Sequence record: PQ471515.1
From: Escherichia phage Turkey3
Length of the DNA: 64,000 nt
Strand: one strand, 5' to 3'
A model generated the notes under the pieces. The model searched no databases and was not told the DNA's origin. It worked only from the letters and a program-made list of their open reading frames with translations. Positions 607 through 50,950 of this stretch are shown in pieces. Position 1 is the first letter of the stretch. Each line of letters begins with the position of its first letter. Both the position numbers and the translations under genes were made by a program.

Positions 607-999
607 ATGACTGAATCTGAACTACGTGAAATGATAGATTTCATTTATGAAATGGTACAAGATAAAAATAACATCAATACAATTGCATCTGGTCCAAGAC
701 AAATTGGTAACCAAATAACATATTCTTTGTCCTTATGGTTACACCCGTGCATTAAGGTTGATTGTTTGTATTTCCGTCCTGATATTGATGCTTATTATTT
801 TGTCAATCATGATGCATTAATGAAACCACATAATCGTCCAGTTGATGATAACTTTGTGACGCACCCATTTTACCTGGCTGATTCCGAAGAGGATGAGTTT
901 CAAAAGAACACAACGTTAAGCCCAGGTGAAATTTGCATCCCTTATGAACTAAAAGATAAAATGATTTACATCACAGAAGTTATGAAAACATGCTGGTAA
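607..999 (+). CDS. hypothetical protein, C-terminal EExxFQ-motif family
   Basis: 130 aa; AAGGA RBS; C-terminal SEEDEFQKNTTL motif shared with 12 other ORFs. Confidence 0.65.
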   Translation: MTESELREMIDFIYEMVQDKNNINTIASGPRQIGNQITYSLSLWLHPCIKVDCLYFRPDIDAYYFVNHDALMKPHNRPVDDNFVTHPFYLADSEEDEFQKNTTLSPGEICIPYELKDKMIYITEVMKTCW

Positions 1000-1046
1000 G
1001 TGCAATGAAACTCTGATATAATACTATGACTTACTAAGGAGAACAT

Positions 1047-1616
1047 ATGAACTTTATTAAATTCAACTCATCTGAGTCAGAAGCATACTTTAATACAAAT
1101 AATAAATTTAATATTATTCTTAAAGACGGAACGGTTGTTATCGGAGTATCATTGCTTTCATTTGATGGCGAAAAACTCAAAACTGTTTATAAATTCACCA
1201 ATCTTGATGGTGATTACTGGGATACGTCAGATGTATCTAAAATTTGCACACATTATGTATTTGAATCTATTGAAGTTGGTGATGGCTGGGCATTGACCTG
1301 TAATGGTAATAAAGTATTTTCTGGTAACATATTTGGGGTAATTTCCAGTAAAGAAATCGTAGACCATCATCTTCATGTTCTCAATAATAACGCCAACACT
1401 TATACACCTGATAATATCAAAATTCACGATATTGTAACATATACTGATTATAATGGTTTCAGACATAAAGCAATTGTAACTGAAGTTAAAAAACCAAAAA
1501 ATTATTTCGACCACGGTTTAATTGAAGTATATATGGTAGGTGGCGAAAAACAATACTTTGATCATTTCACTTATACTGGTTGGGATAGATTCCTAACCGT
1601 TGTTGAGGAATACTAA
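1047..1616 (+). CDS. hypothetical protein
   Basis: 189 aa; AAGGAG RBS. Confidence 0.7.
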   Translation: MNFIKFNSSESEAYFNTNNKFNIILKDGTVVIGVSLLSFDGEKLKTVYKFTNLDGDYWDTSDVSKICTHYVFESIEVGDGWALTCNGNKVFSGNIFGVISSKEIVDHHLHVLNNNANTYTPDNIKIHDIVTYTDYNGFRHKAIVTEVKKPKNYFDHGLIEVYMVGGEKQYFDHFTYTGWDRFLTVVEEY

Positions 1617-1617
1617 C

Positions 1618-2106
1618 ATGCCGATTCGTGGTGTACCAGAACCATTAATGGAAGTTATTAAGCATGTTCGCATTGGAGATCGAGAAGTTAATCTGCGACG
1701 TGGTAATATATATTACTTTAAAACTTCAGAAATGAGTTCTGTGCAGATTGTCATTGGTACATCTATTATGATTACTCGCGTACTTGATGGTAGTACTGAC
1801 TTCGTTGGATACAATGTACTTACTAATAAAGTAACACATACATATAAATGGAGTGGATATAAAACTATTAAGTACGAGTTTGACTTAGCTAGAACTGAAG
1901 AAGAACGATTTATGCTGAGTACTATCAATCCAGCAAACTATCCTGACCTTGATGCATTTTTGCTAATTTTAAAATTGTATAATGAAGCAAATCAGAAAGC
2001 CAAAGATTATGATAGAATCATGTATGAACGCCGAAAAGAACGTGCACAAAAAAGTTATGATCTGTATGATAGCCCATACGTGAAATATAGTAAGGGGTCG
2101 AAATGA
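1618..2106 (+). CDS. hypothetical protein
   Basis: ORF 1600..2106 trimmed to internal ATG preceded by GAGGA; TAACATG overlap with upstream stop. Confidence 0.6.
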   Translation: MPIRGVPEPLMEVIKHVRIGDREVNLRRGNIYYFKTSEMSSVQIVIGTSIMITRVLDGSTDFVGYNVLTNKVTHTYKWSGYKTIKYEFDLARTEEERFMLSTINPANYPDLDAFLLILKLYNEANQKAKDYDRIMYERRKERAQKSYDLYDSPYVKYSKGSK

Positions 2107-2507
2107 ATAAAGAAGTTCAAATTATCATAACTCCACCTATACAAAGTCTGGATGTATCCATTAGTGATTTTTTGGAAAAATACTATGAATGGTTTAATGA
2201 AGATTCAGTAATTTATAACCATTCATTACCTGATGGTTTCGTTGAGCTTATTGAATTAAATGCAAAATCACTATACTTCTGTGTTGAATACAATGATTAT
2301 ATGACAGATGAAGCATATCGTTTTCGTTGTACATTGTATCCTAACCATTTTTCCATTGGTTATAAAGACTATCAGTACTGCACCACAAACTATAGTGTAG
2401 AGGAAGAATTTCAGTACAATTTACTTTATCCTGATTTAGATTATACGATTGCAGTACTGTTGACTAAAATCATGGATTTTTATAAAGATAAATATAATGC
2501 AGCCTAA
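2103..2507 (+). CDS. hypothetical protein, EExxFQ-motif family
   Basis: 134 aa; ATGA start/stop overlap; C-terminal VEEEFQYNLL. Confidence 0.65.
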   Translation: MNKEVQIIITPPIQSLDVSISDFLEKYYEWFNEDSVIYNHSLPDGFVELIELNAKSLYFCVEYNDYMTDEAYRFRCTLYPNHFSIGYKDYQYCTTNYSVEEEFQYNLLYPDLDYTIAVLLTKIMDFYKDKYNAA

Positions 2508-48689: not shown

Positions 48690-49061
48690 ATGAGTTATCG
48701 TGAAATATTTTCGATCATTACTATTATTGTGTTTAGTTTAGGTTCTTTGATTTGGTTATTGTATTACTTCTGTGTAACCCCAGTATATAATATGCTAAAT
48801 TCAGTTCGCTCTGATGTTGGTATTGTTTCTTTTATTATCTTCATGGCATATTATATGCTAAGTATCACAGGTTTGGTTTCGGTTGTTATCTTTGACCTTG
48901 GACCGAATCAAGATGGCATGGAGATGTGGGAATTGATAACGATGTTTGCATGTATGATACCTGCATTTGGTGTATGTGCTGGTGTATTTTATGGGTTGTG
49001 TAAAGGTGTGAACTACTTAAAAAATATCCACAATACTATTCGTAAAAAACGTATGTTATAA
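48690..49061 (+). CDS. three-helix membrane protein, family member 10
   Basis: 123 aa; GAGGAA RBS; tail NTIRKKRML. Confidence 0.6.
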   Translation: MSYREIFSIITIIVFSLGSLIWLLYYFCVTPVYNMLNSVRSDVGIVSFIIFMAYYMLSITGLVSVVIFDLGPNQDGMEMWELITMFACMIPAFGVCAGVFYGLCKGVNYLKNIHNTIRKKRML

Positions 49062-49068
49062 TAAAAAA

Positions 49069-49097
49069 TCCAGTACTATAATAGTACTGGATTAATT
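49069..49097. terminator. bidirectional terminator at strand-switch point
   Basis: CCAGTACTAT / ATAGTACTGG palindrome between convergent genes, flanked by A- and T-rich runs. Confidence 0.65.
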
Positions 49098-50222
49098 TTA
49101 ATTATCTAAGCCACCAATTACACTGAACTGTGTGGTAACGTCTGAACTATTATCTATGTAAGTTCTTCTACCAACATAATATAGTTGTCCTTTTGCTTGA
49201 ATAAAAGTTACGGTCCCTGTATTAAATGATATAATATCATTGTATGTAATGTCAGGTGGTAGTGATGCTGATAACGCAGTAACTTTACTTAATGCAGCAC
49301 TAGTACTACCATTTATACCAGCAGCAATACTACCAGTACCATAGAACTTATTATCTTTACCAATGAATACGTTGGCTGATGCTTGTGTAGCTGATGTTAT
49401 TGCCTTACCAATTTGGAATGCGGTTCCTATGGTGTATGGTGTGCTCCTGGCAGCGTCTATGCTTTGTGTATATCCATCCCCTAGCTGACCATTAACTTTG
49501 TCACCACATGAGTATAGAGTACCATTGAGGCTGTATATGATCCCACGGTTAGAGAAGCTAACAGCTTCTGCATTAGTCCATACTGGTGCGGTGTATGAGT
49601 TTACACGACTAGCGGTCGTTCCTAGACCTAGTATACCATATGTGTTATCACCACATCCAAACCATTGTCCAGAACTGTTTTGATAGAACACTGAACGTTC
49701 TGTTGATTCCATGCGTACAGCATCCACAGCACCACTTTTAACGAACGAAGTTGATGAGGATGTAGTACCAGTACCCAATGCACCATAAGTGTTTGTACCA
49801 ATCGCATAGATTGATCCTAGTGGTGTCATAACACGTATACAGTTATATCCCAATTGAACTTTACATTCAAATAGGTTGTCCCATATTTCAGGAACAGCAG
49901 AAAATAAATTTGTAATTTCGAACCATGATGTTGTCGAACCAGTTAATCCTATACTGCTTTTGTTTCCTAAAATGAAAACAGTTTTGTCCTTCTTAATTAT
50001 CCATGATGATAGAAAGCCTATCTCACAGCTATGAACATTTGATTCGATTTGGGTAATATAATACTTAACGGTGTTATCACCCATAAATGCCGCAGCACCG
50101 GATGCAAAAAGGTTTCCAGTTTGTTTATTTAAAATGTAGTTATTGTTTCCATATACACTAACATCATAAGAACTTTCTTGTTTTTCGTTCCCATAATCAA
50201 ATAACAATACGAAAGGTAACAT
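49098..50222 (-). CDS. MLPF-leader paralog 1, RCC1-like beta-propeller repeats
   Basis: 374 aa; N-terminus MLPFVLLFDYGN; repeated GxLGxG blade motifs (NGQLGDG, YGILGLG, YGALGTG); GGAG RBS. Confidence 0.8.
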   Translation of the reverse strand: MLPFVLLFDYGNEKQESSYDVSVYGNNNYILNKQTGNLFASGAAAFMGDNTVKYYITQIESNVHSCEIGFLSSWIIKKDKTVFILGNKSSIGLTGSTTSWFEITNLFSAVPEIWDNLFECKVQLGYNCIRVMTPLGSIYAIGTNTYGALGTGTTSSSTSFVKSGAVDAVRMESTERSVFYQNSSGQWFGCGDNTYGILGLGTTASRVNSYTAPVWTNAEAVSFSNRGIIYSLNGTLYSCGDKVNGQLGDGYTQSIDAARSTPYTIGTAFQIGKAITSATQASANVFIGKDNKFYGTGSIAAGINGSTSAALSKVTALSASLPPDITYNDIISFNTGTVTFIQAKGQLYYVGRRTYIDNSSDVTTQFSVIGGLDN

Positions 50223-50299
50223 GATAAAATCTCCTTGTGTTATACTTTATTTAATCATTTTATAATGTACAATTTTACAGCGATTTAATTGAGGTACTC
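50223..50299. promoter_or_regulatory. divergent promoter region
   Basis: AT-rich 77-bp spacer between divergent starts; AAATAAAGTATAA box upstream of the minus-strand RBS. Confidence 0.45.
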
Positions 50300-50950
50300 A
50301 TGAATAAAAGAAGTAAGTTCTATCAAGAATATTTCACTAAACAGAAACGATTCACAAAAAAATACTTTACATCATCCCACCGACCAGTTGCAAGTTACAA
50401 ACGTCCTAATACTAACTATCTTACTGGTGGCAAGTTTAGTGCAAAGTTCGAATTACTTATGCGTGAAAAGAATATCAAGATGCATTACGCAGAGACGAGA
50501 AAAAACTCATCAATTATTTGCTCTGATTTTCTTGAGTACGGTTGCTTAACTTATAAATTCAATGATGTATATTTGTATATTGATGTTGATTGTAACAGTA
50601 CTCTTATGTTTGAGATTTCAATTCACCCAAATCACAACCGTTATATAAACATTAACTTGATTGATAAAGTACTGATTGGTATATCTAGTACTGATGGTGG
50701 TGGATTTGAATTTATTGCTTCAAAATATGATGAAGATTTCGTACTTTACCCAGTACTTGATGATGTGAAAGATATTCTCAATTCATTAAAAGGAAGTCAA
50801 TACAAATTATCTGAAGAACAGCTATTTCAGTACTCACTTATTCATGATGATATCGAGATATACTTAGAGTGTGCGAGAATATTGGAGTATCTTTATAATG
50901 AACTAACAACAACTGGTAAAGTGACTGCATTCACATTATATAATATGTAA
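50300..50950 (+). CDS. hypothetical protein, EExxFQ-motif family
   Basis: 216 aa; GAGG RBS; C-terminal SEEQLFQYSLI; only + gene inside the minus array. Confidence 0.65.
   Translation: MNKRSKFYQEYFTKQKRFTKKYFTSSHRPVASYKRPNTNYLTGGKFSAKFELLMREKNIKMHYAETRKNSSIICSDFLEYGCLTYKFNDVYLYIDVDCNSTLMFEISIHPNHNRYININLIDKVLIGISSTDGGGFEFIASKYDEDFVLYPVLDDVKDILNSLKGSQYKLSEEQLFQYSLIHDDIEIYLECARILEYLYNELTTTGKVTAFTLYNM

Follow-up and report, generated by a model that had tools for sequence, protein, structure and literature searches.

The EExxFQ block of small phage Turkey3 proteins is very probably the signature helix of a large paralogous family in RaK2/121Q-type jumbo phages

Introduction

What does a short acidic motif signify when it recurs in a series of small phage proteins which otherwise appear to have little in common? 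The question is raised by a 64,000-nucleotide (nt) stretch of Escherichia phage Turkey3 (PQ471515.1; the whole stretch is referred to here as the window and positions are counted from its first letter), in which a first-pass annotation had listed thirteen open reading frames (ORFs) between 607 and 50,950 with divergent N-terminal parts and a shared acidic block of the form EExxFQ. These were taken to be otherwise unrelated, small early proteins carrying the same C-terminal peptide, perhaps as a tag for docking or targeting. Our analysis indicates that the block is very probably an internal helix in the common fold of one paralogous family, and we consider below what such a family might do.

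The window has a GC content of about 34%, with dense short ORFs on the + strand and seven tRNA genes. As the first 12 kb show 98% identity to Escherichia phage WPEC3 (384 kb) and approximately 91% to phage 121Q, we regard the window as part of an Asteriusvirus, a jumbo myovirus of the RaK2/121Q type. Every one of the motif ORFs is annotated as 'hypothetical protein' in WPEC3, 121Q and RaK2.

Results

Conservation of the motif at the protein level

The block is present in all thirteen ORFs, which are all on the + strand, and when anchored on the glutamine (position 0) it can be described as [ST](-6) E(-5) [ED](-4) x x F(-1) [QM](0) x [SN](+2) h(+3) [VILT](+4). A loose regular expression found 13 matches amongst the 340 ORFs of the window compared with a mean of 0.017 (maximum 1) in 1000 residue shuffles, and a strict expression found 9 compared with 0.016, so that the motif is well beyond what shuffled controls produce. 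The loose matches included twelve of the thirteen listed ORFs plus ORF 1600–2106, and this fourteenth member (with 'TEEERFMLSTI') was also recovered with E = 2e-5 by a hidden Markov model (HMM) built from the thirteen ORFs, in whose training set the new member was not included. The original count was therefore an understatement.

Codon usage within the block varies synonymously, with Ser(+2) encoded by AGY or TCN, Q by CAA or CAG, and F by TTT or TTC, and the variable positions are unconstrained at the DNA level. Selection thus acts on the encoded protein. A nucleic-acid element within the coding sequence (for recombination, or as a motif in RNA), for which the recurrence of the block was the sole argument, is refuted by the same observations and we consider its probability to be negligible.

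In an alignment of 103 sequences from the larger family described below, F was found in 100, Q in 99 (with M in the other four), E(-5) in 79, E(-4) in 76, S(+2) in 81, T or L(+3) in 93, and V, I or L(+4) in 98. Position -2 was most often Y (29), L (26) or F (13) and position +1 was Y (31), L (17), E (14), Q (11), N (6) or G (5), while L occurred at position -7 in only 30 sequences. The motif is preceded by a strand pattern, h-x-h-x-D, which gives a full signature of h-x-h-x-D-x3-[ST]-E-E-x-[YLF]-F-Q-x-S-[TL]-[VI]-x-[DN]. The replacements seen in the motif were Q by M, F by M, L or H, and S by N or T.

The block might be read as a cleavage site cut after the glutamine by a phage or host protease resembling the potyvirus NIa enzyme (as in tobacco etch virus, TEV) or the picornavirus 3C enzyme, whose sites are ExxYxQ↓(G/S) for TEV NIa and LFQ↓G for 3C (as in LEVLFQ↓GP). 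The most conserved residues would indeed be E at P6, F at P2 and Q at P1, with Y the commonest residue at P3, and a few members have a literal TEV consensus ('EEGYFQGS' in WPEC3 340466–340912 and RaK2 264822–265313). However, the P1' residue is mostly Y, L, E or Q and is G in just five of the 103 sequences, the putative site lies within a helix predicted with high confidence where it is probably partly buried, and in the parts of WPEC3 and RaK2 whose annotation we read the named proteases (Peptidase_S77, ClpP-like and COG3904) include none that is 3C-like, although this comes from annotation and not from an exhaustive search. The Peptidase_S77 enzymes of the T4 gp21 type cleave after Glu. We reject cleavage because of the residues at P1', because the site is helical and because none of the annotated proteases fits, and judge that the chance of it being correct is very remote. 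It should be noted that RaK2 262976–263398 is also among the members having the literal TEV protease consensus, which matters when these genes are cloned with TEV-cleavable tags.

Size, distribution and relatedness of the family

When iterated, the HMM converged on 71 ORFs, or about 10% of genes, in the window and the non-redundant parts of WPEC3 (the second copy of the WPEC3 terminal repeat was excluded from this census). In every one of them the aligned column is occupied by F-Q or by a near equivalent (F-M, M-Q or L-Q, for example), and all 71 pass a threshold of E < 1e-3, at which reversed or shuffled control ORFs gave no matches. The members in WPEC3 match annotated coding sequences (CDSs), and include an array of ten genes just upstream of the region corresponding to the window (WPEC3 98,980–106,551) and a large array of approximately 43 genes at 326–355 kb, which adjoins the right terminal repeat (it is the largest array, and is located a few kb inward of the right copy), as well as a few singletons elsewhere. 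In Klebsiella phage RaK2, which belongs to a different genus (Alcyoneusvirus), a scan of 150 kb revealed at least 32 members bearing this signature.

Pairwise comparison does not reveal this family in full, as single-linkage clustering of BLAST matches joined 76 of the 103 sequences in one component and left 22 singletons, six of them from the window. Judged by these sequences, the thirteen ORFs listed originally appear to be the most divergent part of the family. BLAST matches between N-terminal parts were confined to neighbouring genes (ORFs 9197 and 9606 at 2e-5, 1600 and 2908 at 4e-4, and 10695 and 11120 at 0.02; ORFs are named here by their first nucleotide), and HHalign comparisons of ortholog-group profiles for the parts preceding the motif returned nothing beyond such neighbour-gene matches. 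The description of these proteins as otherwise unrelated is thus accurate at the level of BLAST and profile comparison, and fails at the level of predicted fold, which is shared; our claim of homology rests on the full-length profile plus the fold. The closest relative was in the same genome for 50 of the 103 members and in the other genus for 31, and this fits a set of old paralogs with continuing lineage-specific duplication.

Predicted fold and the position of the motif

The AlphaFold2 model of ORF 9606, which was based on a 40-sequence family alignment, had a predicted local distance difference test (pLDDT) score of 90.3 and a predicted template modelling (pTM) score of 0.83. It consists of a helix (residues 4–15), five strands (26–32, 44–51, 54–61, 64–68 and 76–79) and two further helices (87–96 and 104–114), and the helix at 87–96 is exactly EESLFQYSMI. 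A second AlphaFold model was made for ORF 6286, which has no BLAST-detectable relative in the family (pLDDT 79, pTM 0.69), and in this a helix (7–17) is followed by strands at 22–26, 35–39, 45–48, 52–56 and 79–83, a low-confidence helix at 68–76, the motif helix at 88–97 and a last helix at 104–121. The order of elements common to both models is a helix, a five-strand antiparallel beta-meander, helix 2 containing the motif, and helix 3, with the motif helix having a pLDDT above 90 inside a compact alpha/beta domain. Within ortholog groups the motif block is the best-conserved stretch in two of three groups (0.93–0.95), and helix 1 is conserved too.

The secondary structure of the block is consistent in the two members modelled. 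The block is not terminal, since 21–57 residues follow it in the window members and form a further helix, and the short amphipathic stretch noted earlier after the motif corresponds in the models to this C-terminal helix. A motif that is an internal helix of a compact domain points to diverged paralogs and not to a tag on unrelated proteins, and the notion of a terminal peptide tag is not supported, the evidence favouring a single paralogous family (71 members, plus at least 32 in RaK2) with the block as helix 2 of the fold. We hold this conclusion with considerable confidence.

The idea of a common docking site can be retained in a modified form, in which the conserved helix, and especially an exposed E-E-(E) turn and the Q, would bind one host or phage hub protein (a subunit of RNA polymerase, for example, or a chaperone, or an unfoldase or protease of the Clp type), while the variable sheet recruited differing cargo, making the proteins adaptors. 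This would account for polar and acidic residues being conserved on an otherwise hypervariable scaffold (E in 79 and 76, and Q in 99, of 103 sequences) and for the degree to which the block is conserved within ortholog groups, and a ClpA-like ATPase and ClpP-family proteases are annotated in these phages. On the other hand, the motif is a short helix within a compact domain and not a free peptide, the replacement of Q by M and of F by M, L or H suits packing more than specific recognition, and no co-varying partner family was identified. We consider a docking site of this kind rather unlikely. A narrower proposal, that the acidic helix is the handle for one hub (the phage ClpA-like/ClpP-like system or a host machine) and the approximately 70 paralogs an adaptor repertoire, is more doubtful again. 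If it were true, bacterial viruses would have an equivalent of the poxvirus ankyrin/F-box families, and no larger family of effectors would be known from a phage.

Database and literature searches

Searches of Pfam produced no match for 19 single proteins (distant relatives included) or for any of the 70 members scanned, and in PHROGs these 70 were split over 56 groups, every one of which is of unknown function. The family profile did not match PDB sequences (best E = 0.39), and there was nothing significant among the Foldseek matches listed against PDB structures (best E = 0.25, template modelling (TM) score about 0.2). Matches at E < 0.01 amongst the predicted viral structures of BFVD were all to uncharacterised proteins, with Escherichia phages UB and slurp01, and phages GAP32 and CBB, as the named sources, and weaker matches (E 0.02–0.2) named fHe-Yen9-04, PBECO4, RaK2 and pEa_SNUABM_47. 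When 1.84 billion representative proteins were searched exhaustively with HMMER, there were 21 matches only; TEEE[YFL]F[QM]xS[TL][VIL] is kept in the distant relatives found in this way, one of which maps to Erwinia phage Hallingskeid at 40% identity. Word-indexed searches, for which the profile of 70 members was too dilute to be of use, found only Asteriusvirus-type proteins (in phage records or large contigs labelled as E. coli), RaK2, Salmonella phages and one Morganella fragment.

Small, acidic paralogs which diverge quickly and are arrayed in tandem are also what might be expected of immunity proteins, antitoxins or superinfection-exclusion proteins, each neutralising a different toxin or competing phage in the manner of polymorphic-toxin immunity arrays, and one distant member has a sub-threshold match to SUKH_6 (E = 0.021, 15.8 bits compared with a cut-off of 27). 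Set against this, all 70 members fell short of every Pfam immunity family, no SUKH or other immunity fold was found among the listed Foldseek matches to PDB, and no cognate toxin genes were noted adjoining the arrays in the annotations we read. We regard an immunity role as improbable.

The observation in the first-pass annotation that no described motif matches the block holds for Pfam, the PHROGs annotations, PDB sequences and the literature searched, as we found no description of the family or motif in the RaK2, CBB and Sharanji papers, a jumbo-phage review or phage transposon-sequencing (Tn-seq) preprints. About 10% of RaK2 proteins were reported to be paralogues (PMC3622015). Lineage-specific expansion in jumbo phages is known, and the family, its size and its signature are without description in the literature searched.

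Genomic setting, charge and evolutionary rate

The family proteins are soluble and mostly acidic, with a median isoelectric point (pI) of 4.78 and a net charge of -9, compared with a pI of 5.6 for other ORFs of similar size. When we accepted sites matching at least 11 of 12 sigma-70 consensus positions, window positions 1–49,000 contained 31 such sites on the + strand (ten of them perfect) and none on the - strand, with 1.8 in shuffled sequences, and three members (ORFs 5469, 9606 and 10695) have one 32–51 nt upstream. T4-like phages have early regions with promoters of this type which are read by unmodified host RNA polymerase, and window 1–49,000 looks like such a region. The earlier suggestion that these small proteins are early products is supported to the extent that the near-consensus promoters are on the same strand as the genes and absent from the other, and early expression is probable on this basis.

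A structural role is not evident, as no member carries a virion label in the RaK2, 121Q and WPEC3 annotations we read, though other genes do. The functional annotation of RaK2 drew on tandem mass spectrometry (PMC3622015). This bears on the suggestion that these are assembly chaperones or minor virion parts for fibre or 'hair' proteins, such as those of the RCC1-like repeat array in the window. Small acidic proteins with an amphipathic C-terminal helix are generally like secretion and assembly chaperones, and the member at 50300–50950 is located inside the RCC1-like gene array. As well as the missing virion labels, however, most members are in promoter-dense regions far from structural genes and no secretion-chaperone structure was among the PDB matches listed, which leaves this as a highly improbable explanation.

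Identity to the 121Q orthologs is 77% for the family genes and 89% for their neighbours (Mann-Whitney, p = 0.013), and the median non-synonymous substitution rate (dN) against 121Q is 0.136 for the family and 0.062 for neighbours. From this difference, together with omega values of 0.11–0.73, we conclude that the family is fast-changing yet still constrained. Orthologs of ORF 11120 in Asteriusviruses occur as alleles of 92–98% or about 56% identity, and are almost wholly deleted in three phages.

Discussion

The role of the motif and the function of the family

The explanation which we favour on balance, by a modest degree, is that the motif is the signature helix of a large paralogous family of small, mostly acidic alpha/beta proteins of RaK2/121Q-type phages, and that these proteins are diversified early effectors. 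Here, [ST]-E-E would provide the N-cap and acidic first turn of the helix, and F(-1), [YLF](-2), the small S(+2), [TL](+3) and [VI](+4) would make a wide hydrophobic arc on a ten-residue helix, with F, S, [TL] and [VI] probably packing helix 2 against the sheet and the other helices. The Q is probably semi-buried, since M can replace it, and as the substitutions seen for Q, F and S retain size and shape and not hydrogen bonding, we read helix 2 as a packing keystone. Such a role would explain the survival of the block while the rest of the protein diverged past detection by BLAST and HHalign.

The family would have grown by tandem duplication, accompanied by gene loss, to reach approximately 70 genes per genome, in regions which may be transcribed from strong host-type (sigma-70) promoters. 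The paralogs would be early, non-virion proteins which bind host or competitor targets, in host takeover or anti-defence, with the variable sheet and loops giving each its own specificity. Five observations suggest an effector set: the paralogs are numerous, they form tandem arrays, their surroundings are dense in promoters, they are acidic and are not marked as virion proteins, and they diverge quickly while genes are gained and lost. Direct support from the analyses extends to the motif, to the existence and size of the family, to the fold as predicted, to the genomic context and to the higher rate of evolution; an effector function is a tentative proposal, and taken by itself we would put it at somewhat below an even chance.

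A number of points weigh against this explanation. The two models are not fully independent because both alignments included other paralogs, and the burial of F, Q and S is suggested by helical periodicity and substitution patterns. A near-invariant polar Q and an acidic pair maintained over approximately 100 paralogs exceed the usual structural need, and may indicate a shared binding function. Early expression is suggested by promoter consensus alone, and there is no experimental or homology-based clue to function in the form of a Pfam family, an NCBI-type name or a solved relative. Finally, the census covered WPEC3 apart from 195–245 kb, and about half of RaK2 (150 kb).

Whatever its function, about one gene in ten of these 350–380 kb phages belongs to a single family which is invisible to existing resources, being without a Pfam model, scattered over PHROGs groups and composed of members all named as hypothetical proteins. 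A block of jumbo-phage 'dark matter' becomes in this way one tractable object, with one signature and one fold to solve. This also has practical value, as these phages are under development for therapy against E. coli, Klebsiella and Salmonella.

Members of the family in the window

The fourteen members are all on the + strand, and the first eleven are located in the first 12 kb of the window. The first (607–999, 130 aa) has the motif SEEDEFQKNTTLS at nt 883–921 and is followed by the added member, which encodes 162 aa from an ATG at 1618 in an ORF opening at 1600 (1618–2106; motif TEEERFMLSTINP at nt 1894–1932), and by members of 134 aa (2103–2507; SVEEEFQYNLLYP at nt 2394–2432) and 167 aa (2908–3411; DEDVHFQESLVCD at nt 3211–3249), for the last of which the 50 kb of syntenic 121Q sequence used for comparison contained no reciprocal ortholog. 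The member of 118 aa at 5469–5825 (TEEEYFQTSTVQE at nt 5718–5756) has an 11/12 sigma-70-like promoter at 5410–5437, which ends 32 nt upstream, and the next (6286–6657, 123 aa; DAEDEFQKSTVYE at nt 6544–6582) is the subject of the second AlphaFold model. The 3' end of the member at 9197–9613 (138 aa; TEEKFFQYNLVND at nt 9485–9523) overlaps the start of the one used for the first model (9606–9965, 119 aa; TEESLFQYSMIND at nt 9861–9899), which has an 11/12 promoter at 9533–9561. Three more are found in close succession, at 10695–11111 (138 aa; TEDMYMQLNFVYD at nt 10986–11024, with M in place of F, and an 11/12 promoter at 10615–10644), 11120–11524 (134 aa; DEDMFFQLSTVYD at nt 11417–11455) and 11526–11942 (138 aa; TEEEHFMDSTVKE at nt 11820–11858, with M in place of Q).

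The remaining members are more widely separated and longer. These are at 26070–26585 (171 aa; TEESVFQQSLIHN at nt 26418–26456), 31984–32556 (190 aa; NEEEYFQESIVTE at nt 32419–32457), which has a basic N-terminal extension and a pI of 9.3, and 50300–50950 (216 aa; SEEQLFQYSLIHD at nt 50810–50848), which also has a basic N-terminal extension and is isolated among minus-strand genes for RCC1-like repeat proteins. Extensions of this kind are approximately 50–90 aa in length, start with MN[RK]..KF and occur in 31984–32556, 50300–50950 and WPEC3 24551–25210, giving whole-protein pI values of 7–9.3, and could be nucleic-acid-binding or localisation tails in these three long members.

Other features of the window and of WPEC3

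Several other gene families were noted in the same region. Five ORFs of 54–59 aa starting with MTH[KE]EW[LM] (2679–2858, 3408–3578, 4913–5077, 5074–5238 and 5235–5399, + strand) form a small paralog family of unknown function which is interleaved with the EExxFQ genes, and three of these ORFs are in direct tandem. The minus strand at 49098–63964 has at least 13 adjoining paralogs of 245–461 aa, nearly all of which start with MLPF[AVG]R[ML]..YGN; these form the RCC1-like array mentioned above, annotated in WPEC3 as 'regulator of chromosome condensation' (RCC1-like repeats), and are a second large family with a conserved N-terminal peptide. They are possibly the fibre or 'hair' proteins of these phages. 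At 37328–38363 and 46622–49061 (+ strand) there are ten tandem ORFs of 104–123 aa with about three predicted membrane-spanning stretches, and most of these paralogs have a short basic tail, several with R.K[IV]P[ED]. A 432-aa ORF at 41654–42952 (+ strand) contains five tandem repeats of approximately 75 aa, KKTTEQFIKDAKEKR.DIDF.YSKV.Y.N..TKVT.IDPE[FY]GEF..TP..FL.GSGHP, followed by a distinct C-terminal domain.

The seven tRNA genes are located at 4716–9180 and include a tRNA-Ser called with the anticodon ACT and two adjoining tRNA-Thr(TGT), with an HNH/NUMOD4 homing-endonuclease ORF (6999–7523) sitting amid them, and this set is unlike that of 121Q, where Gly and Leu occupy the region. For a core regulatory gene, the phage sigma-factor gene (20471–21436, + strand) is present as an allele of unusual divergence, with 60% identity to its 121Q ortholog compared with about 90% for most neighbours. 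In WPEC3, positions 1–22,500 and approximately 361,600–384,131 have parallel gene layouts with equal CDS lengths and a constant coordinate offset, which suggests a long terminal repeat some 22 kb in length that is packed with very small ORFs.

Comparison with known systems

The predicted fold bears some likeness to that of p32/gC1qR/MAM33 (a helix, seven strands and two helices in an acidic protein) in the order of its elements and its acidity, and 1p32, 3jv1 and 6szw recur among the weak Foldseek matches. We do not regard this as a match, as the E values (0.5–1.7) and TM scores (0.18–0.25) are not significant, there are five strands compared with seven, and there is no sequence signal.

A short conserved peptide on differing small phage proteins is also found in the internal proteins of T4, which share an N-terminal capsid-targeting sequence that is removed after L/I-x-E by the gp21 prohead protease, the carriers being packaged, and a gp21-like Peptidase_S77 is present in the phages considered here. 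The likeness ends there, as our motif forms a helix within the domain and no virion annotation is attached to the members. Capsid targeting of the T4 type was rejected for these reasons and because L at position -7, as counted above, is infrequent.

A further parallel is provided by the zinc-ribbon family of Bacillus phage G and the paralogues of RaK2, in which there are likewise many tandem paralogs of a small domain per jumbo genome with birth-and-death evolution. The zinc-ribbon family has approximately 35 copies, and was termed an unprecedented expansion in a review of 224 jumbo phages (Iyer et al. 2021, PMC7824862). The family described here has about twice that number, or about 70 copies, and unlike the zinc-ribbon family it is without a Pfam model or PDB match and its members cannot be joined by BLAST (22 of 103 have no BLAST relative).

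Eukaryotic viruses offer the remaining comparison. The ankyrin/PRANC and Bcl-2-like families of poxviruses and the MGF360/505 multigene families of African swine fever virus (ASFV) combine a variable body with a conserved element and are used against host defences. Our family has no sequence or fold relation to these, its function is conjectural, and its element is internal and not a C-terminal, F-box-like dock for a host ligase. Nonetheless, it also has a variable body and one conserved element, with many copies towards the genome ends which are accessory and fast-evolving, and if it does prove to be a repertoire for host takeover or anti-defence, these phages would share with poxviruses and giant viruses a known strategy based on gene families.

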